In this document: one piece after another, positions 6,926 through 61,709 of the stretch
How the letters are laid out: each line of letters opens with the position of its first letter
How positions within the stretch are numbered: position 1 is the first letter of the stretch
Source of the DNA: Candidatus Microgenomates bacterium
Lineage (GTDB): Bacteria; Patescibacteriota; Microgenomatia; UBA8517
Assembly: GCA_049523135.1 (NCBI GenBank)
Contig: JBEKNE010000001.1
Location: 651,234 to 715,233 of the forward strand
DNA: 64,000 nt
Direction of reading: 5' to 3'
The notes under the pieces: generated by a model
The model's database searches: none
Told to the model about the DNA's origin: nothing
The model's input: only the letters and a program-made list of their open reading frames with translations
Position numbers and translations under genes: made by a program

Positions 6926-7257
6926 AATCCAATATGACCAAGTACAAAGAATACTTCGACAAAATGGTTTCGGAAAATAAGGAAGCTTTTTATAAATTTA
7001 CACGCGCACATTTTGAATATTCAATCGATCAAAATAAAAACCAGGAGGAATTCAACAGAGAAGGTGAAAAAATTCTCAAAATTATCCACGAATGGGAAGA
7101 CAGACTCTGCAAGCACTCGGAAGGTGCCGGATTCGGAAAATATACTTCCTCTTTAGCCGAAAAATTTCAGGATGAAGTCAAAAGCCACTTTCCCCTAATT
7201 GATCACGTAGGAATAATTGTCAATAAGTTCTCCCTTAAGAAAATTAAACTGAATTAG
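6922..7257 (+). CDS. hypothetical protein (soluble, Lys/Glu-rich)
   Basis: ORF overlaps permease stop by 4 nt (ATGA coupling). No recognisable motif. Confidence 0.4.
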   Translation: MKSNMTKYKEYFDKMVSENKEAFYKFTRAHFEYSIDQNKNQEEFNREGEKILKIIHEWEDRLCKHSEGAGFGKYTSSLAEKFQDEVKSHFPLIDHVGIIVNKFSLKKIKLN

Positions 7258-7269
7258 TTATCCTTTCAG

Positions 7270-7875
7270 TTATAAAGCGATCAGTATCGCTCCTACAATT
7301 ACCACAACTCCAACTCCGGCGCCAACAATAGTAGGCCAACCAGTTCCCGTAACCGGAATGGGCCTTGGGGTAGTTTGCACATAAGGGGTCGCTGATGCTG
7401 ATGCTGTCGCTGTAGCCGTCGGGGTTGCACTGGCAGAGGCGGTTGGTGTCAAAGTCGGTGAAGGCGTGACTGTCGCCGTTGAACAAAGCGTTAAATCCGT
7501 AGTCCATGAAGAGTTTTGAGTAGGACAACAATACTGTTGCGACCCGCAGGTTGCAATTGTCCCAACATTCGCAATGCTCGAACAACTTATTTGTTCCGGT
7601 GTTCCGTCTGCATTCGGGGAAGCACAACTCATCAAAAGAGTCGTTTGTCCGGCTACGGGACAGGCTTCAGCCCCCGGACAAAGATTTGCCGCAGCTTTTT
7701 CCTGAATATTTTGCTGCTGCTTAACAAGCAGAACGCCCGCCGCAACACTCAGTGCCAAAAAAAGAGTTACAACAACGCCTATTATTATTCCTGTTTTACC
7801 GACTTTCCGAGGTTTTTTGCCGGTGACCATCTCAAAAGGAGGTGTACCATTTGTTTCATTATTTTGAGTGGGCAT
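7270..7875 (-). CDS. hypothetical surface protein. N-terminal TM, 10-Cys extracellular module, Pro/Thr/Ala-rich linker, C-terminal hydrophobic segment
   Basis: Sequence composition. C-terminus ...IPVTGTGWPTIVGAGVGVVVIVGAILIAL with no charged tail. Confidence 0.45.
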   Translation of the reverse strand: MPTQNNETNGTPPFEMVTGKKPRKVGKTGIIIGVVVTLFLALSVAAGVLLVKQQQNIQEKAAANLCPGAEACPVAGQTTLLMSCASPNADGTPEQISCSSIANVGTIATCGSQQYCCPTQNSSWTTDLTLCSTATVTPSPTLTPTASASATPTATATASASATPYVQTTPRPIPVTGTGWPTIVGAGVGVVVIVGAILIAL

Positions 7876-7890
7876 ATTAATTATATTATC

Positions 7891-8538
7891 TCACAACTGT
7901 GCAATTAGTTTTGGTGTTATTTCCGAAAACTTTCCAACAATTAAATCAGCACCGGTGAGATTTTTCTCATCTTCCAGATCAGAAATTATTATCACCTTCA
8001 TTCCTGCACTTTTGGCCGCATCAATATCCGATTGTGTATCGCCAATAACCAAACAGTCTTTTGCTGGCACGTCCAGCTTATCGGCAGCCAACAAAAAGGC
8101 ATCAGGAAAAGGTTTTTTGTTCAAAATTTCCTCACCTGTTACTGTAGCATCAAAAACTCCATCAAGGTCCAACTTTTTAAAAACTTCTTCAACCACCCAC
8201 CATTCACAATTTGTTGCTAATGCAATCTCAATATTGCTTTCTCTCAAATTTTCAAGAAAATTTCTCGCCCCTTCAATTAATTTAATGTCCTGTAAAAATT
8301 TTACATAATGTTTATAAGTTAGACTTTTCAGCTCATCCAAAGTTTTATCCGTTGTAATATTGTACTTAACGAGGAGAATGCGCCAGTTATCTTCTATACC
8401 AACTCCAGGAATTTCAGGATGCTCACTAATAGGCTCCTTTCCTAAACTCTTCAAAACCTCGGAGAAGGCTTTACTCCACAGGCCACTACTATTTATGAGT
8501 GTTCCATCGAGATCAAAAATTACGGCGGAGAGTATCAT
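7891..8538 (-). CDS. HAD-family hydrolase (beta-phosphoglucomutase/phosphatase-like)
   Basis: Motif I DLDGTL, motif III K, motif IV GDTQSDIDAA. Confidence 0.7.
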   Translation of the reverse strand: MILSAVIFDLDGTLINSSGLWSKAFSEVLKSLGKEPISEHPEIPGVGIEDNWRILLVKYNITTDKTLDELKSLTYKHYVKFLQDIKLIEGARNFLENLRESNIEIALATNCEWWVVEEVFKKLDLDGVFDATVTGEEILNKKPFPDAFLLAADKLDVPAKDCLVIGDTQSDIDAAKSAGMKVIIISDLEDEKNLTGADLIVGKFSEITPKLIAQL

Positions 8539-9965
8539 TTCTTTTTAACTATCGTTCCCATAGAAGTATCTTCAAGTGTATATCCATCTTTTTCTATCTG
8601 CGTACGAAAGTCGTCTGCAGAATCATAGTTACCTCTCTGGCGCTCCAATTCCCGCTGGTCTATGTTATTTATAGTTCCTCCACTTATCATAATTGTGGGG
8701 GAAAATAAAATTGTAGCCTTTGAAACAGGTAAAACGTTTTTAACCATTTTTTCTGACTTATAGGTAGAAAGACCCAATCCCAAAATTTCATCGAGGCTCA
8801 TTGCCAAATCATATTTATCGCCCGAGGGAATATTGCTTTTAAGCATCTCCCAAAAAACTGCCAAGGCCTTGGGGGTACCCAGATCATCACTTAACGCTTC
8901 CAAAAACTCACTGCGGAAAGTTTCAATTTTATTTTCTTTTTCTTCAGATAATACACTCCTATCCGTTTGTGTTTTAAGAGAATTTATCTGATTGCGGAGC
9001 CTTTCTAAGCCGTTTTGGGCGGCTTGCAGCGAATCCCAAGTAAAGTTCAATGTATCACGGTAGTGTACTCCCAAAAATAAGTACCTGAGTGCCAACGGAT
9101 CGAACCCTTTTTTGACAACATCATCAATTGTATAAAAATTTCCTAAACTCTTACTCATCTTCTTCCCATCAACCATTAAAAATGCCGTATGCAACCAATA
9201 TCTTACAAGAGGAATCTTACCCGATGCGGCTTCCATCTGGGCAATTTCTGCCTCGTGATGCGGAATAATGAGGTCAACTGCACCACCGTGTATATCATAT
9301 TGTGGTCCAAAAAAAGTCTCCGTAATTGCAGTATCTTCTATGTGCCACCCAGGCCTGCCTTCTCCTATTTCAGTTTTCCAAGAAGGTTCATTAGGTTTTG
9401 AAAACTTCCACAAACAAAAATCATTCCAACCTTTCTTTTGCTTGTTTTCATCTATTCTAGATACGGAATCACTCTGTGAAAGTTCGGTACGGCCCGAGAG
9501 CTTTCCGTAATCCGAAAACTTAGAAATCTCAAAATATATACCGTCATCAATCGTATAAGCGTAACCTTTATCTATCAGGGTTTTAACTTGTTTAACAATT
9601 TGACTTATATAATCAGTCGCCCGTGCATATTTTGTAACGGAAATATTGTTGAGTTCTTTCATATTTTCCATGTAAATACCTTCATATTTGTTGACAAGTT
9701 CCTTCCACTCGATTCCCAACTCCCTTGATCTACTTAATATTTTGTCATCAATATCTGTGATATTTTGAAGATAAAAAACGTCAAATCCTGCATATCTCAA
9801 AAATCTTACCAAGAAATCAAATTGTGTATATGTTTTTGCATTGCCGATATGGGGATTGTCATAAACAGTTGGACCACAGACAAAAAGATTAACCTTTTTG
9901 TCATTTATCGGTTCAAACTTTTCCTTTTTTCTTGTTAATGAATTTGTTAGAAAAATATCAGCCAC
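8535..9965 (-). CDS. cysS: cysteinyl-tRNA synthetase
   Basis: Class I HIGH (PHIGNAKT) and KMSKS (KMSKSLGN) motifs. CysRS-type zinc-site residues. Confidence 0.9.
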   Translation of the reverse strand: MADIFLTNSLTRKKEKFEPINDKKVNLFVCGPTVYDNPHIGNAKTYTQFDFLVRFLRYAGFDVFYLQNITDIDDKILSRSRELGIEWKELVNKYEGIYMENMKELNNISVTKYARATDYISQIVKQVKTLIDKGYAYTIDDGIYFEISKFSDYGKLSGRTELSQSDSVSRIDENKQKKGWNDFCLWKFSKPNEPSWKTEIGEGRPGWHIEDTAITETFFGPQYDIHGGAVDLIIPHHEAEIAQMEAASGKIPLVRYWLHTAFLMVDGKKMSKSLGNFYTIDDVVKKGFDPLALRYLFLGVHYRDTLNFTWDSLQAAQNGLERLRNQINSLKTQTDRSVLSEEKENKIETFRSEFLEALSDDLGTPKALAVFWEMLKSNIPSGDKYDLAMSLDEILGLGLSTYKSEKMVKNVLPVSKATILFSPTIMISGGTINNIDQRELERQRGNYDSADDFRTQIEKDGYTLEDTSMGTIVKKK

Positions 9966-52198: not shown

Positions 52199-52620
52199 TT
52201 TGCAAATAAGCATAAATTGTTGTTAAATAAAACCCAATGACATTAGAAAACATCCAAAAACGAAATTTCCAGTTAAGTATTCTTGAAGCCAAAGAAAAAC
52301 TCGGCGAACTGACTGAAGAACAAAAAGCTCAACTGGAATCTTTACGCGAATCGGAACAACTAAGACATGCGGGCGTATCAGCCGGGGCTTTGATAGAGCC
52401 GACTGTTTACGGCGAAGGAATATCAGGGACTCCTGAATCAGACAGACTGCAAAATTTAAAACTTGAACATAAAAGAGCTACAAGGCAAGATAAACGTAGT
52501 AGCCGCGGGGGCTCTACTGGTTGACTTAGCCTGCCAATTATTAGATAATACCCATGTCCTAAGAAAGCTCGCATTCCGAGAGGATACAAGTCAAGCCGAG
52601 GCAAAAAGCGATAATTTTAT

Positions 52621-52654: not shown

Positions 52655-53206
52655 ATGTTAAAAGCACAAAAAGTTACATTCGTAGACAATTTGAAAGAAG
52701 ATCTTAAAGGAGCAAAATCTGTAGTTTTGGTTAACTATGCCGGATTGGGAGTTAAAGCCCAACAGGAACTTAAAAAGAGGCTTTCGGAAGTTGACGGACA
52801 CATGATTGTAGTTAAAAATACTCTTCTAAAACGCGCCGGCGAAGCGGTCGGAATCGACAAGGAAGTTTTAACCGATGATATTCTTTCCGGCCAAACTGCA
52901 CTCGTTATCGGGAGTGAGGATCCAATTGCCCCGATTCAAGTCTTGGGAAAGTTTGCCAAAGAATTTGTCAGTGAAGTGGGTTTGCCCATACCGAAATTTA
53001 AAGTCGGAGTTGTCGATGGATCTTTCCAGGATGAAGTTTCCCTTGCCAAACTTGCCACTCTTCCGGGACGTGATGCACTGCTTTCGCAAGTCCTTGGAAC
53101 CTTGATGGGTTTGGAATACGGCTTAGTTGGAACACTTAATGGAAATTTACAAAAGCTTATCTACATATTAGATCAAGCCAGTAAAAAGAGCGGAGGTGAA
53201 AAATAA
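52655..53206 (+). CDS. rplJ: 50S ribosomal protein L10
   Basis: L10 family similarity. rplJ-rplL coupling (ATGA overlap). Confidence 0.9.
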   Translation: MLKAQKVTFVDNLKEDLKGAKSVVLVNYAGLGVKAQQELKKRLSEVDGHMIVVKNTLLKRAGEAVGIDKEVLTDDILSGQTALVIGSEDPIAPIQVLGKFAKEFVSEVGLPIPKFKVGVVDGSFQDEVSLAKLATLPGRDALLSQVLGTLMGLEYGLVGTLNGNLQKLIYILDQASKKSGGEK

Positions 53207-53613
53207 TGACAGAAGAAGTAAAAAAGGCATCAGAAAAAATTGAAAAAATGGTTGAGGAAGTTTCAAAACTTTCCGTCTTGGAACTTTCGGAGTTGGTCAA
53301 TGCTCTTCAGGACAAACTCGGTGTTAGTGCCGCCATGCCGGTAGCTGCAGCCGCAGCCCCAGCAGCCGCGGGCGAAGCCCCGGCAGCCGATACGGCAAGT
53401 GCTACCCAAACAGTAACAATGACAGCATCCGGAGCCAATAAAATTGCAGTTATTAAAGCTTTGAGGGAAATTAATCCCAACTTAACTTTAATGGATGCAA
53501 AAGGCATGACCGAAACTCTCCCGGCTGAAGTTTTGAAAGACGCTAAAACAGAAGACGCAAAGAGCGCTTCCGAGAAACTTAAGACAGCAGGAGCAACCGT
53601 AGAGCTCAAGTAA
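53206..53613 (+). CDS. rplL: 50S ribosomal protein L7/L12
   Basis: N-terminal dimerisation helix, Ala/Pro hinge, C-terminal ...AGATVELK. Confidence 0.9.
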   Translation: MTEEVKKASEKIEKMVEEVSKLSVLELSELVNALQDKLGVSAAMPVAAAAAPAAAGEAPAADTASATQTVTMTASGANKIAVIKALREINPNLTLMDAKGMTETLPAEVLKDAKTEDAKSASEKLKTAGATVELK

Positions 53614-53646
53614 TTACTAAAAAGTTATTTGAGTCTACATCAAAAG

Positions 53647-53673
53647 ATCCGTCTTAAAACGACGGATTTTTTG
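53647..53673 (+). terminator. intrinsic terminator after rplL
   Basis: Stem ATCCGTC/GACGGAT, loop TTAAAAC, then TTTTTTG. Confidence 0.6.
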
Positions 53674-53768: not shown

Positions 53769-55610
53769 TTATTGTTCTAAACCGGAAGAAAATAGCGATT
53801 TTAGGATATCTTTGGTGGCATCATACTTCTTCCCCTTTTCAACTTCCCAATGCAAATCATAACCCGGAGCACCGTTTATCTCTATCACGAAAAAGCGACA
53901 ATGGGCATCGTGTATATTTGGAGAAATTATATCTACCCCACAAAATCTCAAACCTAAAGCCTTTGTCGCTTTAATCGCTATTTGAGAATATTTCAAATCA
54001 AAATGTTCAACGTTCTCAACAGTACCTCCTGTGTGGGCATTTGCATTCATGCGTAATGTAATTTTCTCGCCTTTGGCCGGAACACTATTGTATCCCAAGA
54101 CTTGTTTTGTAAGCATTCTCTCGACTTCATAATTTAATATCAACGGTTCTATCCTCCCGTTATTATATTTCTCTATCAAATCAATTATTGTCAAATTTCC
54201 ATCGCCAACAACGGAAGGTAAAACTCTACGTGCTACTGCTAGTACCCTTCCATCTAAAACAAGAAAACGATAATCCTCCCCTTCCACATATTCCTCAATT
54301 AATACTGATTTATATTTCTCCCTGACTCTATTAAATGTTTCCTTAAGCTCATCAACATTCTCAAGTTTTGCTGCCACAAATTTTCCGGACGATGCGGTAT
54401 CGGGTTTTATTACTAAAGGAAAAGAAATTTTTTTCGTTTTTAGTGATTGCAGGACTTCCTCCCAGGTGCCAGCTAGAATCCCCGCTGGTGTTGGTATACC
54501 GCACTTTCTCAAAATCTCTTTCGTCAAATTTTTCCTCTTGGTCAACTTGGTTGCAACCGTCGAATTCAAAGAAAAGAGATTCTTAAATGTAAAAATAGTT
54601 TTTCCATTTTTTGAAATTTCATAAACTCTTTTATCCGCAGGGTATTCATGCACAAAATATCCCAGTTTTGCCGCATCTTTAGCAAAATCGTCCATCAGTG
54701 TTGTAGATCTGGGTTTATCGGTAATCAAAAATTTGATAATCTCTCTCTCAACATTCAACCCGGTGTCCTCTTTAATAGAATCCCATTTGGGTGCTGAGTT
54801 TACCTCAAGTATAAAAAGATTTCCGTTTTCGTCTTCCAGAATATCAACTCCAGCAACATCAATTGAAAGAGCATTTACCGCTCTTTCAGCCAATATTGAA
54901 TATTTGTGGGGTACCTTTTTATACGACATTTTTACAGGACCCTCTTTACCAAAATGGTCCTTCCATCTAGTAGGTCTAACAATTGCAGCCATTGCTTTGC
55001 CGCCAATTACAAGAACTCTAACTCTTATACTTGCTTTGATAAATTCTTGCGCGAGAAATCTTTCACCTAATATCTCCCGAATTGTCAGATCTTCAATCAG
55101 TCCATCTAATTGCTTTTTATTCTCCGATAACCATACGGCACGCCCCCTTTTACCATTGGTACCTTTAATAACAAAGGGGAAACCAAAAATTTTTGGTGCC
55201 TGTTTCCCAATCTTTTTCAAAGACATAAACAATGTCCTTGGAACAGGAATGCCATTTTCAAATAAAAGTTTTGTCTCAAGACCTTTAGCTAGTGGCAATC
55301 GGATAAATAGGGACTTTTGATACATTCCGTCAACAACTTTTACTCCGTTTTTTCTGGCATAATCGGCAACTATCGACGCATCTTCAAAATGCTTACTTAC
55401 AACTCTAAAGTAAATTACACCGAAAGAAGCAATGTCCTTACCTTTAATTAAAATTACAGGAGCAGCAGATGTTTTATTAAGGTCATATTCCAAATCCAAA
55501 AATGATGCTGTAGTCATATCCAGCCCCATCACTTTACCCTCTCTGGAAAACGCGGTGAGATGATTTACTTTTCCACCAGTGATAATTAATATTTTCTTAT
55601 TATTTGTCAT
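53769..55610 (-). CDS. tandem double ATP-grasp protein (two RimK/cyanophycin-synthetase-N-like ATP-grasp modules in one 613-aa polypeptide)
   Basis: Module 1: FPFVIKGTNGKRGRAVWL, ILEVNSAPKW. Module 2: FPLVIKPDTASSGKFV, EEYVEGEDYRFLVLDGRV, FFVIEINGAPG. Confidence 0.7.
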   Translation of the reverse strand: MTNNKKILIITGGKVNHLTAFSREGKVMGLDMTTASFLDLEYDLNKTSAAPVILIKGKDIASFGVIYFRVVSKHFEDASIVADYARKNGVKVVDGMYQKSLFIRLPLAKGLETKLLFENGIPVPRTLFMSLKKIGKQAPKIFGFPFVIKGTNGKRGRAVWLSENKKQLDGLIEDLTIREILGERFLAQEFIKASIRVRVLVIGGKAMAAIVRPTRWKDHFGKEGPVKMSYKKVPHKYSILAERAVNALSIDVAGVDILEDENGNLFILEVNSAPKWDSIKEDTGLNVEREIIKFLITDKPRSTTLMDDFAKDAAKLGYFVHEYPADKRVYEISKNGKTIFTFKNLFSLNSTVATKLTKRKNLTKEILRKCGIPTPAGILAGTWEEVLQSLKTKKISFPLVIKPDTASSGKFVAAKLENVDELKETFNRVREKYKSVLIEEYVEGEDYRFLVLDGRVLAVARRVLPSVVGDGNLTIIDLIEKYNNGRIEPLILNYEVERMLTKQVLGYNSVPAKGEKITLRMNANAHTGGTVENVEHFDLKYSQIAIKATKALGLRFCGVDIISPNIHDAHCRFFVIEINGAPGYDLHWEVEKGKKYDATKDILKSLFSSGLEQ

Positions 55611-55612
55611 TC

Positions 55613-56914
55613 TTATTGTGTTGGATTAATTAAAAAACCAGCCATATCGTTCCTACCCATTAAAAACCGCGTTGACATTCTTGACCTGTCAGTCACCGAG
55701 GCGGTTGATCTAATCTTTTGTCCAGCAATTATATAAGTAATCCCAATCACAGGTCGTGTTTGTAAACCACTTGCCGATCTATATTCATACTTGTCTTTCC
55801 ACAAAATATTTTCTTTTGTCATTAACCCTAAGTCTTCAGCAAGTCCCCTATCAATTGAGCTTCTCATTGCCCCTGTATCAATGCGTGCAAGTATCCTGAC
55901 CCTCCTGGATTTGTCAAAACTGTATATTTTTATTTCCTCTAAACCTTTGAGAGTTTTTATTCCTTCCTCCTGTGCTGCCCTATTTTCAAATCTTCCCGCA
56001 AAAAGCATTTTGGCAATTCTGACTCCGTGATCCGCATCAATTACATTCAGGTCATCCACTCTCTCCAGTCTCTTTTTAAGACCCTCTCCATTGGCAAGCT
56101 GAATCTGAAGCCCGGGTTGGGCATTAAGTTCAAGAACCATCGGTCCTTTATCTGGATGTAAAACGATATCAACCCCCACATAACCCAAATTGGAAGCTTC
56201 AGCCGCCTTGACTGCCGTTTCTAAAATCAAAGTCCAATTAGGTACTTTTACTCCCCGAAGTTTCCTTCCCGTGTCGGGTTTGTACACAATTTGACTTCCG
56301 TGCCAGATGGCATTTGTTGTTGTACCTGTTGCAATATCCACTCCAACCCCAAGTGCACCCTGATGCAAATTGGCTCTTCCGCCGCTTTCCTTCGTAGGTA
56401 ATCTAAGCATTGCCATAACGGGAATTTTGTTAAAAACAATTATACGGATATCGGGTGTTCCGCGATAAGCATACCTTCTGAAAGCTTTGGCACGGCCTAC
56501 ATATTCCTGAATAAAAGCAACATCGGGATCGTTTCCCATTGAATATGCTCCTTCCAGGATATCCAAAGTGTGAAGTTTAAGATCATCAGCCGTTACCCGC
56601 TCTTTCTGCGTAGTCAGCCATATAGGCTTACCGTTTGATTTCAATCGCCTTTTAACTACAATTATTCCCTCTCCTCCCATTCCCCGACTTGGTTTCAAAG
56701 CAAACTGGTCAGGAAGTGACCCCCAATCGGACTCAAGAACATCCTTAGGATCCATAAACTTCTTAAAAATTTCAGGGTGCGCCACTTCAGCTTTCTTAAG
56801 TACTCTTGCCGTCTGAATTTTGGAATCGGCAATACTTTTACCGCGCTTGGTATTATATTTGTATGCAAAAAGCTGAGTTCTGGCATTAAGCCCCAAAATC
56901 GAGGATGTTTTCAT
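55613..56914 (-). CDS. RimK-like alpha-L-glutamate-ligase-family ATP-grasp fused to C-terminal retropepsin-like aspartyl protease domain (pfam05618/RimB-like)
   Basis: ATP-grasp motifs FALKPSRGMGGEGIIVV, ANLHQGALGVGVDI, VLELNAQPG. C-terminal RILARIDTGAMRSSID (D-T-G-A active-site signature). Confidence 0.7.
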   Translation of the reverse strand: MKTSSILGLNARTQLFAYKYNTKRGKSIADSKIQTARVLKKAEVAHPEIFKKFMDPKDVLESDWGSLPDQFALKPSRGMGGEGIIVVKRRLKSNGKPIWLTTQKERVTADDLKLHTLDILEGAYSMGNDPDVAFIQEYVGRAKAFRRYAYRGTPDIRIIVFNKIPVMAMLRLPTKESGGRANLHQGALGVGVDIATGTTTNAIWHGSQIVYKPDTGRKLRGVKVPNWTLILETAVKAAEASNLGYVGVDIVLHPDKGPMVLELNAQPGLQIQLANGEGLKKRLERVDDLNVIDADHGVRIAKMLFAGRFENRAAQEEGIKTLKGLEEIKIYSFDKSRRVRILARIDTGAMRSSIDRGLAEDLGLMTKENILWKDKYEYRSASGLQTRPVIGITYIIAGQKIRSTASVTDRSRMSTRFLMGRNDMAGFLINPTQ

Positions 56915-56920
56915 ATAATT

Positions 56921-57850
56921 TTAACCTTTGATGAGTTTTCTAAACCTGTAGAATTCCATAACTCGAAGTCCTGTATATTTACCAAGGATGAGATCAAGGG
57001 CTGCCATTAAAACGAGAGAAATTTCAGGGTTCAGAAGTACATACTTTTGAAGCGGCTGAAAAGTCAAAAACAAGTATGAAACAAGCGACAGAATTAAAGT
57101 TTCAAAAGTTAAGTTCAAAGCCGTTTTGACACTTTTGCCAAGCTGAACTCTTGTAAAGTCCTCCGCCAGAAGGATTAGGATTAGAACCGCAAAAATGGAA
57201 ACGTTAGCAAGAGCCGAGAAACTAAGTACGGGAGCCAAGAATAAAATGCCTAAAACCCCAACCACAACAGCCCAAAGAATAAATGACATTCTGGGAAGGT
57301 ACTGAAGCCTGATCTTCAGCCTTCGGAGAATCATACGCACAAGCGTCGAAACGGTAACAATTACCAGGAAAAGTCCAATTCCGACAACCGGCCCTGTTGC
57401 CACAAACACAACCGACAAAGCGGCAGGGAGGAAAATTCCGAATCCTCTAATTCCTATCACATTACGCGAAAATGCTATGACAAAAGTTATGATAGGCAAA
57501 AGGAGCAAAAGAACAATTGTATTGGCAGGTACCCCTGAGGCTACCGCGCCACGGATCGCATACTTAACGGGGTTAAACGGCCAAACCGGGCCCAAAGTCT
57601 GATTTTTCAAAAGTGACTCCAGTGGACCCAGAGATTCTGTGCTCTTCTGAGTGATATCGATAGGTGCAGCAACAGGTGTAGGAGTTAGAGTCACAATGGG
57701 AGTTGGAGTCGGGGTTGGGGTTTGGGCTCTTCCCAAAGCCAAAGACGGCCTTACTAGCACCAATCCCAAAACCACAAAAAGTATTAAAAATATTTTTCTC
57801 ATGGAAAAAGTTTTCTCGAAAGTAAGGCTATTATACCATAAATGTCTCAA
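56921..57850 (-). CDS. polytopic membrane protein (signal/TM, Pro/Thr linker, about 7 TM). Candidate partner of ATP-grasp system (7TM_transglut-like, no transglutaminase domain seen)
   Basis: Hydropathy pattern. 6-nt gap to ATP-grasp/protease gene. Confidence 0.45.
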   Translation of the reverse strand: MRHLWYNSLTFEKTFSMRKIFLILFVVLGLVLVRPSLALGRAQTPTPTPTPIVTLTPTPVAAPIDITQKSTESLGPLESLLKNQTLGPVWPFNPVKYAIRGAVASGVPANTIVLLLLLPIITFVIAFSRNVIGIRGFGIFLPAALSVVFVATGPVVGIGLFLVIVTVSTLVRMILRRLKIRLQYLPRMSFILWAVVVGVLGILFLAPVLSFSALANVSIFAVLILILLAEDFTRVQLGKSVKTALNLTFETLILSLVSYLFLTFQPLQKYVLLNPEISLVLMAALDLILGKYTGLRVMEFYRFRKLIKG

Positions 57851-57965
57851 TAAATCCCTGAAGACGCGGCTAAAAAAGATCTTGTACTTTTTGCCTAAAA
57901 TCAGCTACAATTAAGCTTCGCCGCCAAAATTATTCCCTAACAGGGCAGTTTTTGCGTCAAAAAAT

Positions 57966-59696
57966 ATGGTCAAAACACTAAAAACATTTTATAAATTTGT
58001 TGCAAGGCGAAAATTAGTATTTATCGTCTTTGTAATGCTGTTTATCTTAAGCCAAGTTCTGGGAAGTGTTACCCCCTACTTTTACAAGCTATTTACCGAT
58101 GCTATTCCTTCATTGGACTTCCTTAAGCTTGTCATTATACTTGCCGCTTATATCACAGTTTCGATGATTGCTCTTATTTTGGAAGTATCCGCCATGAGAA
58201 TGGGAGACCAAATAATAGTCCGTGAAGGAGCCAATGCAAGATCTACTATTTTTAAATATGTACAAGATTTGGATTTCTCATTCCATTCCAGTAAATCAAC
58301 CGGAAGCCTAATTTCAGCATTCAAACGCGGCGATTCGGCATTTTTTGGATTGTTTTTTGATATTCATTACAGAATTCTAAGCGTTATTGTTTCTTTCTTT
58401 GTACTCGCCTATTTCTTCCTGCAATTCGGCTGGAGCTTTATTGCCTTGATAATCCTGTCGTTTGCCATAGCTCTTTTCGCCATGAAATTCTTAATTAAAA
58501 ACAATGTCGAAAAAAGAAATATTGCAAACGATGAGGAGGACAACGTATCGGCAATAATAACCGACAACCTTATGGCCTACGAAACTGTCAAGCTTTTCGC
58601 CAAAGAAAAGGCAGAACTGGGAAGACTTAACCTCGCATTCATTCCCTGGAAGACTAAAAGCCTCGATTACCAAAGATCATTCCGTAGTATCGACCTTGTC
58701 ATGGGCATAATTATTAACCTTAGTATGTTTGCAATACTCCTTCTTACACTACATTCAACCATTGTTGCCAAGTTGACAATTGGAGATTTCGTTATGATTG
58801 CAGCTTTCATCTCCAGTTTCTTCCCCCGTCTTTGGGAACTTGTCTGGGGCTTAAGGGATGTTGCTAAAGATTTTGCCGATATTGAAAAGTATTTTGGCCT
58901 TCTTAACTATCAGATTGATGTAAAGGATCCAGAAAAACCAATCAGGATTGATCATGTTTTTGGAGAAATTATTTTCGACAAAGCCAAATTTGCCTACGGA
59001 AACAGATCCAGAAATGCCATTGACGGAATAAATCTAAAAATTGATCAGGGACTAGCTTTAGCACTCGTCGGCAGAAGCGGCTCGGGTAAAACCACTCTCG
59101 TTAAACTCCTTATGAGATTCTACGACCTCCAAGAAGGATCAATTATGATTGACGGAATTAACATCAAAGATTTCAAGAAAAACACTTTGAGAGGATTTAT
59201 CGGTATGGTTCCCCAAGAACCTATCCTTTTTAACAACACCATCGCCTACAACATCGGCTACGGAAAAGTAAAGCCAAAGCTTTCCGAAATCAGGTTTGCC
59301 GCTAACATGGCAAATATAGATGATTTTATTCAAAGTTTGCCCAAGAAATACGAAACAGAAGTCGGAGAACGCGGGGTTAAGCTATCCGGAGGGCAAAAAC
59401 AAAGATTATCAATCGCACGAATGATCCTAAGTGATCCAGATATTATTATTTTTGATGAAGCCACAAGCCAGCTTGATTCCGAATCCGAAAGACTTATTCA
59501 GGATGCTTTTTGGAAGGCCAGACGCGGAAAAACAACAATTATTATTGCCCATCGCCTTTCCACCATTATGAAAGCGGATAGAATTGTTGTCATGGAGAAA
59601 GGAAAAATAGTTGAAGAAGGAACCCACAAAGGACTTTTAGCAAAAAAGGACTCTCTTTATTCTCACTTTTGGAATTTACAAATCAAGCTGGACTGA
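57966..59696 (+). CDS. ABC exporter, fused permease-ATPase (MsbA/type I exporter family)
   Basis: 6-TM N-domain. Walker A GRSGSGKTT, signature LSGGQKQRLSIAR, Walker B IIIFDEATS, H-loop AHRL. Confidence 0.85.
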   Translation: MVKTLKTFYKFVARRKLVFIVFVMLFILSQVLGSVTPYFYKLFTDAIPSLDFLKLVIILAAYITVSMIALILEVSAMRMGDQIIVREGANARSTIFKYVQDLDFSFHSSKSTGSLISAFKRGDSAFFGLFFDIHYRILSVIVSFFVLAYFFLQFGWSFIALIILSFAIALFAMKFLIKNNVEKRNIANDEEDNVSAIITDNLMAYETVKLFAKEKAELGRLNLAFIPWKTKSLDYQRSFRSIDLVMGIIINLSMFAILLLTLHSTIVAKLTIGDFVMIAAFISSFFPRLWELVWGLRDVAKDFADIEKYFGLLNYQIDVKDPEKPIRIDHVFGEIIFDKAKFAYGNRSRNAIDGINLKIDQGLALALVGRSGSGKTTLVKLLMRFYDLQEGSIMIDGINIKDFKKNTLRGFIGMVPQEPILFNNTIAYNIGYGKVKPKLSEIRFAANMANIDDFIQSLPKKYETEVGERGVKLSGGQKQRLSIARMILSDPDIIIFDEATSQLDSESERLIQDAFWKARRGKTTIIIAHRLSTIMKADRIVVMEKGKIVEEGTHKGLLAKKDSLYSHFWNLQIKLD

Positions 59697-59698
59697 AA

Positions 59699-59917
59699 TT
59701 ATTCTTCTTTTCCCTGCATTCCCAAAAGCCAGAGGACGGCTTCCTTTTTGTAGCGCCTGTCACCTCTACTATTTATACGGATGGCAGGAAGCTTACCGCG
59801 TTTTCCCCAGCGCTTAATTGTTAAAGGAGAAACCCGGAGCAGTTCACTGACTTCGCGGACGGTAAGCAAATCGGGAAGATCTTCCAATCTGATTTTCTTT
59901 TTAATAGTTTGTTCCAT
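59699..59917 (-). CDS. excisionase/MerR-superfamily helix-turn-helix DNA-binding protein
   Basis: LLTVREVSELLRVSPLTIKRWGKRGKLPAIRI matches excisionase-family HTH. Confidence 0.55.
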   Translation of the reverse strand: MEQTIKKKIRLEDLPDLLTVREVSELLRVSPLTIKRWGKRGKLPAIRINSRGDRRYKKEAVLWLLGMQGKEE

Positions 59918-60434: not shown

Positions 60435-61709
60435 CTAAGCTACACGTTCCTTTAGGGCACTGTAATATTTTTGAAGATAATCTTCAGCTTTGTCCCAATG
60501 CTCTTTCCCTAATCCCGCAAGTGCTAAATTCTTCTCTACTCCCGCCAAAACCCTAAGGTGCGCCGCTTTAGCCGCCTGAAGAAGAGAAATCCTGTAAACT
60601 TCAGCCAAATGCTGACAGGCAAGCTTCTCCGCTTCGGATGCGGAAGCTACGCTGTCTTTATTTCCCATTTCTCTGGCAAAGTCCACTTCCATCGAGGCTA
60701 CAATTCTGGGCTCAAAAGCAAGTTTTACCTCACTTTTCAGAAGCTGATAAAACTTCTTCATATCTTCTTTTGCCTTGTCCCATTTTTCATCCTTTTCTTC
60801 GATGAGAGCCTCAACCATATATTTGGCTGCCTCTTTTGCAAGCTCTTTGGAAAGACCATATTGCTCTTTCAGGTGTTTCATTGCATAATCCCGAAGCCTC
60901 ATTCCTTCCGGAACGTTTGCCAGCCTCCACCACGAAAGCTCAAGCTTGGCTGTAATTTTTGGATCAAAAGCAAAATGATTTACCGTATCGTTTCCCCCAA
61001 ATCTGCGTCTCCTGCGGGAGTAATCAAGGATTATATCGGCAAGCTTCCTTGGTGTCATACTCGGAAGGTGATCAACTTCCCAATAAAATTCTGCATAGTT
61101 TGCCTGCCACATCATAAAACCGCTGGTCCGCTGCTCACCTGAAGTTCTTATGAGCAGATCCACATCCGGATACGGTTGATCATGGGTATCAAGATATGAA
61201 GAAATAAGCTTCTCATCAATATCTTCCGCTTTTATACCCGCTTTAACAATCTTCTGTGTAGCTCTGACTATTTCATCCCTTCCCCCATAATCAATAGCCG
61301 CATTAAAAATATGAGTTTTATTATTTTTGGTTTTGTTTTCTATTCTTTTAATATATAGGGCGAGAGCTTTCGGAATTCTATCTTTTCTACCAAGGTGAAC
61401 AAATTTAATATCATCTTTTTCAGCCTCTTTTTCTACAACAGACACCATATTCCAGTAAAGTTTCATTAAATAGGCAAGCTCTTTCGGACTTCTGTCCCAG
61501 TTTTCAGTCGAAAGGCCCCAAACCGTAAAAGTATGCACTCCCCATCTCCTGGCAGCTCTGGCCATTTCCATTCCGGCTTCAAAGCCGGCTTTGTGACCTT
61601 CGAGTGTAGGAAAGCCGTGAGAACGCGCCCAGCGTCTATTGCCATCAAGGATAAAGGCTATGTGGTTTGGAACAATTGTGCCTTCGGGAAGAGCAGTTTT
61701 ATCTTGCAT
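60435..61709 (-). CDS. uppS: undecaprenyl-diphosphate synthase (cis-prenyltransferase) fused to about 180-aa C-terminal helical domain of unknown function
   Basis: HIAFILDGNRRWA, FTVWGLSTENW, cis-IPPS C-terminal RRRRFGG. Extra C-terminal domain has no motif. Confidence 0.8.
   Translation of the reverse strand: MQDKTALPEGTIVPNHIAFILDGNRRWARSHGFPTLEGHKAGFEAGMEMARAARRWGVHTFTVWGLSTENWDRSPKELAYLMKLYWNMVSVVEKEAEKDDIKFVHLGRKDRIPKALALYIKRIENKTKNNKTHIFNAAIDYGGRDEIVRATQKIVKAGIKAEDIDEKLISSYLDTHDQPYPDVDLLIRTSGEQRTSGFMMWQANYAEFYWEVDHLPSMTPRKLADIILDYSRRRRRFGGNDTVNHFAFDPKITAKLELSWWRLANVPEGMRLRDYAMKHLKEQYGLSKELAKEAAKYMVEALIEEKDEKWDKAKEDMKKFYQLLKSEVKLAFEPRIVASMEVDFAREMGNKDSVASASEAEKLACQHLAEVYRISLLQAAKAAHLRVLAGVEKNLALAGLGKEHWDKAEDYLQKYYSALKERVA

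Follow-up and report, generated by a model that had tools for sequence, protein, structure and literature searches.

The 64,000-nucleotide stretch of Candidatus Microgenomates bacterium DNA analysed here (the window: assembly GCA_049523135.1, contig JBEKNE010000001.1, positions 651,234 to 715,233 of the forward strand) carries, beyond the ribosomal protein gene rplL, a minus-strand operon encoding a seven-transmembrane (7TM) protein, a fusion of an ATP-grasp ligase with a retropepsin-like protease, and a double ATP-grasp ligase. In order of transcription, the open reading frames (ORFs) are those of the membrane protein (56921-57850 when the longest ORF is taken), the 433-aa fusion protein (55613-56914) and the 613-aa double ligase (53769-55610); they are separated by 6 nt and 2 nt, respectively, so that the three genes constitute one tightly coupled operon. 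A gene for an ATP-binding cassette (ABC) exporter is transcribed divergently from it. All four ORFs were found where an earlier note, made from the sequence alone, had placed them. We regard the locus as very probably a compact variant, carried by Woesebacteria and Microgenomates of the candidate phyla radiation (CPR), of the Rlo system.

The rloABC operon of Pseudomonas aeruginosa was named by Lormand et al. (mBio 2025, PMC12239564). RloA, a secreted retropepsin, cuts stretches of eight or more glutamates; RloB joins a 7TM region to an inactive transglutaminase domain in the periplasm; and RloC, an ATP-grasp protein, is cytoplasmic. Without its three RloA paralogs the bacterium does not survive low-osmolarity medium, and deletion of rloB or rloC suppresses the lethality. 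Three basic residues of RloA (K46, R114 and R137; the catalytic residue is D48) coordinate polyglutamate and have conserved counterparts in RimB; of the three, R114 and R137 proved necessary both in vitro and in vivo (PMC12239564). RloB has been reported to be 96% proteobacterial (PMC12239564); disruption of its Shewanella homolog leads to hypervesiculation and altered membrane-vesicle production (PMC12096838). RimB is a second retropepsin that cleaves polyglutamate: it stimulates poly-alpha-glutamate synthesis by the ligase RimK, and the pair acts on the ribosomal protein RpsF (PMC11957791). A RimBK hybrid from Desulfotalea (DP2392), in which RimB lies N-terminal to RimK, is proteolytically active (PMC11957791).

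The ligase-retropepsin fusion protein

The first domain of the fusion protein (residues 1-~290; 56045-56914, minus strand) is an ATP-grasp ligase of the RloC type. It matches PF14397 (ATPgrasp_ST) with 226 bits over residues 14-287, and TIGR02291 ('alpha-L-glutamate ligase-like') with 271 bits, which is below that model's cutoff of 314, over profile positions 8-293 of 317. As a set for direct comparison we used a canonical rloA-rloB-rloC operon on a Legionella plasmid: residues 1-287 of the fusion are 38% identical to the Legionella RloC (E 4e-68), across almost the full RloC length. An alignment of 18 sequences shows K74, E137, R157, D249, E262 and N264 to be invariant. Foldseek matches of the N-terminal part are to RimK, ArgX and LysX, and the RimK family model TIGR00768 gives 47 bits (cutoff 143). 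The earlier note had described this protein as a RimK-type ATP-grasp joined to a retropepsin; the joining to a PF05618 retropepsin and the kinship with RimK hold, while the ligase itself belongs to the RloC type (PF14397/TIGR02291) rather than to RimK proper. The domain lacks a signal peptide and is predicted to be cytoplasmic.

The second domain (residues ~320-433; 55613-55957, minus strand) is a retropepsin-like protease of the RloA/RimB type, with the codons of its D-T-G-A active-site motif at 55868-55879 (minus strand). It matches PF05618 with 27.9 bits (cutoff 27), and D346-T-G-A349 as well as G420-R-x-D423 are invariant among 18 aligned homologs, so that the active-site motif noticed earlier is indeed conserved. 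In a profile search of the PDB the domain aligns to 9g59 with DTGA in register. The AlphaFold2 (AF2) model of the whole fusion is of low confidence (56.7), its ligase part being weak because the alignment is shallow, and from this model only the C-terminal domain (residues ~320-430, predicted local distance difference test (pLDDT) score 83-91) and local Foldseek matches were used. For the C-terminal domain these matches are to RloA2 (9g59, E 6e-6) and RloA (9g58), and further to the PF05618 protein Lpg0085 (2pma), the RVP domains of Ddi1, and foamy virus protease. The agreement of motif, profile and fold supports the retropepsin assignment. Against the 152-aa RloA-like protein of Legionella the hhalign match is weak (E 4.8e-4, probability 32%), with DTGA and LLGR in register.

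The residues with which RloA holds polyglutamate also have counterparts in the fusion: R344 (in 'A(K/R)xDTGA'), R387 ('ERPVI') and R410 ('DRS') correspond to K46, R114 and R137, a mapping that is indirect and runs through motif and spacing in the alignments with RloA2 and the Legionella RloA-like protein. R387 and R410 are invariant in the 18-sequence alignment, and position 344 is always Lys or Arg. The retention of a basic substrate channel therefore indicates an acidic peptide substrate.

Relatives of the fusion were collected by scanning one genome per GTDB species (250 relatives, from which 80 loci were retrieved); including contigs fetched by protein look-up, 81 non-redundant loci were analysed, and the L-numbers below refer to these. 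The protease is fused to the ligase in all 82 loci, and between the two domains there is neither a transmembrane (TM) segment nor a signal peptide. As a protease without a signal peptide, fused behind a ligase that is itself cytoplasmic, it must act in the cytoplasm, like RimB. Homologs of the fusion number more than 6000 database proteins, of which the best 120 are all 425-465 aa long and 67-100% identical; the named sources among these 120 are CPR bacteria (Woesebacteria, Microgenomates, Woykebacteria, Saccharimonadia, and others).

A similar arrangement was seen outside the bacteria. On a plasmid of Haladaptatus pallidirubidus (L086, NZ_CP085305.1, 3317-4633) a 438-aa 'RimK family alpha-L-glutamate ligase' matches residues 230-433 of the fusion; it too has a C-terminal retropepsin-like domain, in ligase-then-protease order, and it has no 7TM partner. 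Its gene lies near a succinylglutamate desuccinylase/aspartoacylase gene and a gene of the glutamate-cysteine ligase family.

A short 7TM protein

The first gene of the operon encodes a short RloB-like membrane protein of 293 aa (56921-57802, minus strand), which matches PF14402 (7TM_transglut) with 94 bits. Its supported start is the ATG at 57802, rather than the TTG at 57850 that begins the longest ORF, because the alignment of homologs favours it. The protein consists of a signal peptide, a variable Pro/Thr-rich linker, a conserved ecto-segment of ~45 aa (DITQKSTESLGPLE...WPFNP...GVPANT, invariant in the homolog alignment) and seven hydrophobic helices; by the positive-inside rule, an N-out/C-in topology is predicted. 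Conserved loops predicted to face the cytoplasm are R113/N114/R119, R156-R171, E214-K223 and K275-R288. The Pfam match and the hydropathy thus agree with the earlier description of a polytopic protein with a signal, a PT-linker and about seven TM segments.

Relative to RloB the protein is truncated at its N-terminal side: it matches the RloB profile NF052267 at positions 312-507 of 508 only, and its residues 94-293 are 31% identical (E 2e-18) to residues 310-506 of the 508-aa Legionella RloB. PF14402 is the only domain found; with the match confined to the last ~200 positions of the RloB model, the inactive transglutaminase domain is absent. Nor did the Pfam search detect a recognisable sensor or signalling output domain. 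The protein has 1735 homologs, and the best 120 of them are all 263-322 aa long and contain PF14402 only. The AF2 model (pLDDT 53) is too poor to classify.

Comparison with Rlo and RimB/RimK

Three protein families are common to the operon and Rlo: the 7TM proteins of PF14402, the ATP-grasp ligases of PF14397/TIGR02291 and the retropepsins of PF05618, these last with a DTG motif and conserved basic residues in the substrate channel. The operon departs from Rlo in several respects. RloA is a separate, secreted protein with a signal peptide, whereas the window's protease is fused to the C-terminus of a cytoplasmic ligase; RloB begins with a ~300-aa region made up of a TM segment and the inactive transglutaminase domain, in place of which the window's protein has its signal peptide, Pro/Thr linker and 45-aa ecto-segment; and the gene order is B-(C::A) instead of A-B-C. 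In addition, the CPR operons carry one to three extra ATP-grasp modules (67 of 68 loci, see below), and the host is a CPR bacterium. With the RimK/RimB pair and the RimBK hybrid, the fusion has in common a cytoplasmic ATP-grasp peptide ligase that works alongside a cytoplasmic retropepsin, and a natural single-chain hybrid exists there as well. In RimBK, however, the protease is N-terminal and attached to a true RimK, while in the window it is C-terminal and attached to an RloC-type ligase; moreover, the Rim systems act on ribosomal protein S6 and have no 7TM partner.

The theme itself is older than the name Rlo. In 2009, Iyer and Aravind reportedly predicted an amidoligase system composed of a RimK-like ATP-grasp protein, a 7TM protein with an inactive transglutaminase and a pepsin-like peptidase; PF14397 and PF14402 presumably derive from that gene-neighbourhood theme, which we take to be the one seen at the window's locus. 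To our knowledge, hardly any CPR genomes were available at that time. The families, the theme of three genes and ligase-protease fusions are thus already known, and thousands of database copies are called 'alpha-L-glutamate ligase-like protein'. The literature that we searched holds no description of the CPR architecture in which a short 7TM protein accompanies an RloC::retropepsin fusion, of the near-universal and variable cassette of further ligases, or of the double ligase and the clade of its C-terminal half that are described below; likewise, a search for work on RimK, ATP-grasp or cyanophycin in Patescibacteria, Microgenomates or Woesebacteria turned up nothing relevant. The earlier note was right that ligase, retropepsin and 7TM protein had been linked before, and the trio has since been studied experimentally as rloABC (PMC12239564); its remark that the arrangement matches nothing characterised was too strong, given that operon and the active RimB-RimK hybrid (PMC11957791).

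Recurrence of the operon in related genomes

In 78 of the 81 loci the fusion gene is immediately preceded by the 7TM gene on the same strand, and in 74 of 80 the next gene downstream of the fusion encodes a same-strand ATP-grasp protein; co-occurrence of the operon's genes in related genomes, which the earlier note had proposed as a check, is therefore the rule. Such recurrence in ~80 species-level genomes argues that the arrangement has not come about by chance. Among the 68 loci that extend as far as rplL or rplJ, all except one carry extra ATP-grasp modules (one module in 18 loci, two in 36, three in 13), and the commonest state, two, is that of the window.

The operons at these related loci (sister operons) differ in what accompanies the core. 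A small S-adenosylmethionine methyltransferase, whose weak best matches are carboxyl O-methyltransferases, is present in 26 loci, and a third type of ATP-grasp protein, related to glutathione synthetase and YheCD, in 16. Other same-strand genes encode a glutamine-amidotransferase/Peptidase_C26-like protein, an Ntn-hydrolase-like AAT protein and a DUF3541 protein, and the sister operons also hold several families without any match.

In five loci (L059, L077, L080, L082, L083) the downstream ligases are replaced by a single ATP-grasp protein of ~780 aa with a weak FemAB-like match. FemAB is a peptidyltransferase that builds peptidoglycan cross-bridges, and the match hints at a connection with cell-wall peptides. 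Within the ligase operon of five further loci (L004, L039, L057, L067, at ~9.3-12.3 kb, and L088, at 6936-9005) lies a gene for a 560-680-aa HExxH protein (VLAHEVEGHVLR...ILAEAL), for which no Pfam or NCBIfam match was found. To the eye, the HExxH motif recalls carboxypeptidases of the DUF1704/MATCAP type, enzymes that partner with tubulin-tyrosine-ligase-like ATP-grasp proteins.

Many of the metagenome-assembled genomes that represent GTDB species and carry a Woesebacteria-type locus (L007, L008, L011, L014, L016, and others) are titled 'uncultured Gammaproteobacteria bacterium', and similar titles name 'Alphaproteobacteria' in one case and 'Woesearchaeota archaeon' in another; these look like taxonomy errors made at submission.

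The double ligase

The extra modules of the window are joined in one chain. The N-terminal module (residues 1-~297; 54720-55610, minus strand) is an ATP-grasp domain of the RimK/LysX family: TIGR00768 matches residues ~39-297 with 194.7 bits (cutoff 143.4), the PDB matches are RimK (7qyr, 5zct, 4iwx) and LysX (1uc8), and the motifs VIKGTNGKRG, QEFI, GVDI and ILEVN are present. The C-terminal module (residues ~305-613; 53769-54698, minus strand) contains the second ATP-grasp domain (residues ~346-610) and is related to the G-domain of cyanophycin synthetase (CphA1) and the C-terminal domain of GshF. Its PDB matches, over ~260 residues, are 7wac (the G-domain of TeCphA1, 115 bits) and 3ln6 (the C-terminal domain of GshAB, 102 bits), and the cyanophycin synthetase model TIGR02068 gives a local match of 238 bits (cutoff 850) at profile positions 203-474 of 862. 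Two complete ATP-grasp modules in tandem, as the earlier note had it, are thus borne out. The Lys/glycine-loop, hinge Glu and Mg-binding D...E-x-N motifs are retained in all three ATP-grasp modules of the operon, which hence are no degenerate pseudo-enzymes; the ATP-binding residues, singled out earlier as the point on which such a reading would turn, are intact throughout.

CphA1 G-domains and GshF lengthen a peptide by one amino acid at its C-terminal carboxylate. To see how far the C-half resembles them, we mapped residues of TeCphA1, with roles as given in PMC9427784, through the alignment with 7wac and a MAFFT alignment of 22 clade members and three cyanophycin synthetases. The machinery of activation is kept: the ATP-binding Lys261 (K402 in the window), the Mg-binding Asp431 and Glu450 (D560 and E577), Arg309, which contacts the acyl-phosphate and the primer carboxylate (R448), Arg323, which contacts the beta-carboxyl of Asp (R462), and Asn394 of the Gomega loop. 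The positions that differ are Arg458, which in TeCphA1 holds the alpha-carboxylate of the incoming Asp and is here Asp585 (Asp in 21 of the 22 clade members); His267, in a P-loop that here is DTSSLGK-like; and Glu215, which binds the Arg side chain of the primer, at a position that is variable and not conserved. The clade signature is PG(Y/F)D(I/L)H, as opposed to APGxRMH in cyanophycin synthetases. Judged by these residues, the C-half is a distinct clade of ligases predicted to extend C-terminal carboxylates, in which the incoming nucleophile is probably held differently; that nucleophile may be cationic, or may lack a free alpha-carboxylate. Identity with cyanophycin synthetase was considered for the C-half and rejected, as the N and M (MurE-like) domains are missing and substrate residues are changed: CphA1 consists of N, G and M domains in about 870 aa, while the window has a G-like region fused to a RimK-type module.

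The same relationships bear on a reading that does without export, in which the enzymes would make a small peptide metabolite or a polymer kept in the cytoplasm as a store or osmolyte (cyanophycin-like, or poly-alpha-glutamate), and the 7TM protein would be a sensor or regulator tied to the state of the membrane or to osmotic conditions. All catalytic domains are indeed cytoplasmic, the C-half does resemble both the G-domain of cyanophycin synthetase and the glutathione-forming GshF, the ABC exporter beside the operon is no obligate partner (see below), and glutamate/polyglutamate homeostasis was raised by Lormand et al. as one possibility for Rlo (PMC12239564). We nevertheless consider such a polymer rather unlikely: the CphA1 N and M domains are absent and neither Arg458 nor the P-loop His is kept, the 7TM protein has no sensor or output domain that could be recognised, and its strict 1:1 coupling with the fusion in the operon, across a 6-nt spacer, is more typical of a stoichiometric partner.

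The double ligase itself appears to be a recent acquisition. A word-indexed search returned five full-length relatives, each on a contig that also encodes a homolog of the fusion, whereas in an exhaustive HMMER search of 1.84 billion representatives (13,021 hits) the query's own cluster alone spanned both halves; the other strong hits were stand-alone N-halves of ~290-310 aa, stand-alone C-halves of ~300-315 aa, and long multi-domain proteins with the C-half only. The separate halves stand side by side in L091, where the operon reads 7TM, fusion, a 292-aa gene, a 314-aa gene and then rplL, the two ligase genes overlapping by 4 bp; the 292-aa product is 55% identical to residues 5-295 of the double ligase, and the 314-aa product 49% identical to residues 305-609. 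At the junction, L091 has '...FLSKR*' followed by 'MKKSKHILMD...', where the window reads '...FLITDKPRSTTLMDD...': the stop codon has been lost, and there is no other difference. Since the halves are separate outside the query's own cluster and adjacent in L091, the double ligase is best read, from the sequences compared, as a recent stop-loss read-through fusion of two adjacent genes. It is confined to a narrow clade (the window, L001/L006, L003, L005).

The public call for the window's double ligase (P0121) is 586 aa long and starts at Met28, 27 residues late; the start at 55610, which gives 613 aa, is supported because homologs and the unfused ortholog align from residue 1-5.

Genomic setting and neighbouring genes

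The operon faces rplL (53206-53613, plus strand) and converges on it. Between them, at 53641-53673, lies a hairpin that on the plus strand forms a 13-pair stem followed by a T-run and on the minus strand a 7-pair version of the stem, again followed by a T-run, and that can therefore act as a bidirectional terminator; we annotate it as a putative intrinsic terminator of both rplL and the operon. The succession of rplL, terminator and minus-strand operon is as the earlier note had described it, but its further statement that the module replaces rpoB needs amending. The longest ORF in the window has no more than 676 aa, from which it follows that rpoB and rpoC are absent from all 64 kb, and to that extent the statement stands. 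There has, however, been no local event: in nearly all loci that reach so far, the operon ends convergent to rplL-rplJ-rplA-rplK-nusG, and so no genome-specific insertion is at hand. The absence of rpoB after rplL is a lineage-wide genome organization found across Woesebacteria and Microgenomates. The link to the ribosomal operon is also not obligatory, because L088 (7TM, fusion, DUF3541, and a ligase of the C-half type, 45% identical to the C-half of the double ligase) has no ribosomal genes nearby.

The position beside rplKAJL nonetheless raises the question of whether it is functional, with RimK-family ligases attaching tails of glutamate to a ribosomal protein, S6 or another, and the fused retropepsin taking them off. 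Tailing of this kind has precedent in RimK and RimB, which act on RpsF (PMC11957791), and could draw on the passing TIGR00768 score of the double ligase's N-half, on the RimB-like cytoplasmic location of the retropepsin, and on the operon abutting rplL in nearly all of the 68 loci that extend far enough. The S6-ligase equivalog NF007764, however, gives only 91 bits for the double ligase and 28 for the fusion against a cutoff of 331, the fusion's ligase is of the RloC rather than the RimK type, and RimK systems have no counterpart of the 7TM membrane protein that is the obligatory partner here. The operon, moreover, is convergent to rplL across a terminator, its core also occurs away from rplL (L088), and L12, L10 and L1 of the window do not end in Glu-Glu. 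We therefore judge tailing of ribosomal proteins very unlikely. No tblastn match to rpsF was found in the window or in the fetched loci with the S6 proteins of E. coli and B. subtilis as queries.

Upstream, a divergent intergenic region of 163 bp (57803-57965), presumed to contain the promoter, separates the operon from the exporter gene. Six-frame inspection of this region revealed no credible small ORF (only short stretches without a plausible start or conservation), and no consensus sigma-70 site was scored in it. The exporter gene (57966-59696, plus strand) encodes an MsbA-like half-transporter of 576 aa with PF00664 and PF00005; it scores 360 bits against MsbA (TIGR02203, cutoff 602) and stays below every equivalog cutoff. 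The identity and divergent orientation given to it in the earlier note are correct, yet its membership in the system is not borne out: in only 18 of the 81 loci does an ABC gene occur among the two genes that precede the 7TM gene, and none is present in the other double-ligase loci L001, L003 and L005. For these reasons the exporter was rejected as a core component and is here taken for a facultative neighbour.

ATP-grasp enzymes, a protease and an adjoining ABC exporter are also what one would expect of a graspetide or another ribosomally synthesized and post-translationally modified peptide, in which the ATP-grasps would cyclise a ribosomal precursor, the protease would remove its leader and the transporter would export it; there is even a weak match to the maturase model TIGR04187 (31.7 bits) and a Foldseek match to PsnB at rank 44. 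This is the reading to which we give the least credence, and next to none. The cutoff of TIGR04187 is 350; no precursor ORF was found in or beside the operon (gaps of 2, 6, 155 and 163 nt); the RimK, RloC and CphA-G/GshF clades extend C-terminal carboxylates rather than form side-chain macrolactones; and the ABC gene, which is missing in most loci, encodes no peptidase domain that the Pfam search could detect. The suggestion of graspetide-like synthesis in the earlier note accordingly fails on both the empty precursor search and the maturase score. A role in anti-phage defence was rejected as well, none of the three operon proteins having a PADLOC hit.

Other genes around the operon recur in part. 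A 424-aa undecaprenyl-diphosphate synthase (UppS) is encoded at 60435-61709 (minus strand), with PF01255 at residues 20-238 and a C-terminal extension of ~185 aa without Pfam match, and adjoining it, at 59699-59917 (minus strand), is a gene for a 72-aa MerR/HTH_17 protein. The pair is found upstream of the 7TM gene in ~25-30 related loci, so that a syntenic block of the long UppS, the small MerR/HTH_17 protein, an optional ABC gene and then the 7TM gene is recurrent. Where the ABC gene is missing, the 7TM gene is immediately preceded, on its own strand, by the gene for the small helix-turn-helix protein, which could regulate it. In L003 (44-985), the position of the window's ABC exporter, directly upstream of the 7TM gene, is taken by a DUF6922/AbiEii toxin-antitoxin-like pair. 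On the ribosomal side, a 95-aa ORF (52237-52524, plus strand) fills the 456-bp gap between rplA and rplJ, and small ORFs are called at the same place in the relatives L001 and L089-L091; it was rejected as a gene, having no protein-level similarity in any of 92 loci, and the long gap may instead hold an undescribed L10-leader-type element of CPR bacteria. An Rfam scan found only four tRNAs in the window, with no L10 leader or other RNA near the locus.

A possible mechanism

If the locus is an Rlo-type system, a sequence of steps can be proposed, to which, as a whole, we give slightly less than even chances. Working on the cytoplasmic side of the membrane, the RloC-type ligase and its accessory ligases (here the RimK-type and CphA-G/GshF-type modules in one chain) would use ATP to extend a peptide from its C-terminal carboxylate, residue by residue, via an acyl-phosphate. 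The 613-aa protein would probably channel two successive ligation steps, as linked ATP-grasp ligases commonly perform successive ligations (PMC4431377). The chain would probably be acidic and rich in glutamate; as the two extra modules come from different ligase clades, its residues may be of more than one kind. The fused retropepsin, as a dimer, would trim this acidic chain or set it free, and may stimulate its partner ligase in the way that RimB stimulates RimK. The 7TM protein would receive, anchor or translocate the product at the membrane, with a role in envelope or osmotic homeostasis that is suggested by the phenotypes in Pseudomonas and Shewanella. The Peptidase_C26/glutamine-amidotransferase, methyltransferase and FemAB-like accessory genes of the sister operons fit the chemistry of a carboxylate-rich peptide.

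Several points weigh against this proposal, or against the assignment to Rlo on which it builds. The chemistry is drawn wholly from relatives. The logic of the system may differ from that in Pseudomonas, as the window's protease is cytoplasmic and RloA periplasmic, and the transglutaminase-like domain of RloB is absent. The PF05618 match barely exceeds its threshold, and the AF2 model of the fusion as a whole is poor. Because an Asp takes the place of Arg458 of CphA1 in the C-half, the incoming substrate may be other than an ordinary acidic amino acid. A transport function of the 7TM protein is conjectural; and the conservation of the neighbourhood among related genomes is in part inherited synteny.

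A wider generalization, which on present evidence we think improbable, is that Microgenomates, and possibly many CPR bacteria with genomes below 1 Mb, have a minimal, all-cytoplasmic Rlo machine in which two to four ATP-grasp modules build a non-ribosomal, acidic peptide of mixed residues that a bare PF14402 7TM protein exports or anchors. If this were true, PF14402 would be a previously unrecognised family of peptide translocases or anchors, and the product would be a lineage-variable component of the envelope, important for osmotic survival or host attachment in episymbionts.

Implications for the Rlo family

Rlo influences antibiotic tolerance and biofilm formation as well as cell shape and osmotic survival in Pseudomonas. 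The CPR form is a natural minimal version of the system. That it has no transglutaminase domain and has its protease tied to the ligase argues that the functional core consists of ligase, protease and 7TM domain, and the physical tie itself argues that ligase and protease act on the same molecule. The variable extra ligases, methyltransferase and peptidases of the sister operons point to a peptide product that is built up, rather than to a single modification. For the bacteria that carry it, the outlay of 3-6 kb in genomes of ~0.8-1 Mb, in essentially every sampled relative among the Woesebacteria, implies an important function; and as the fused soluble enzymes are convenient for reconstitution in vitro, they could reveal what the Rlo product is.

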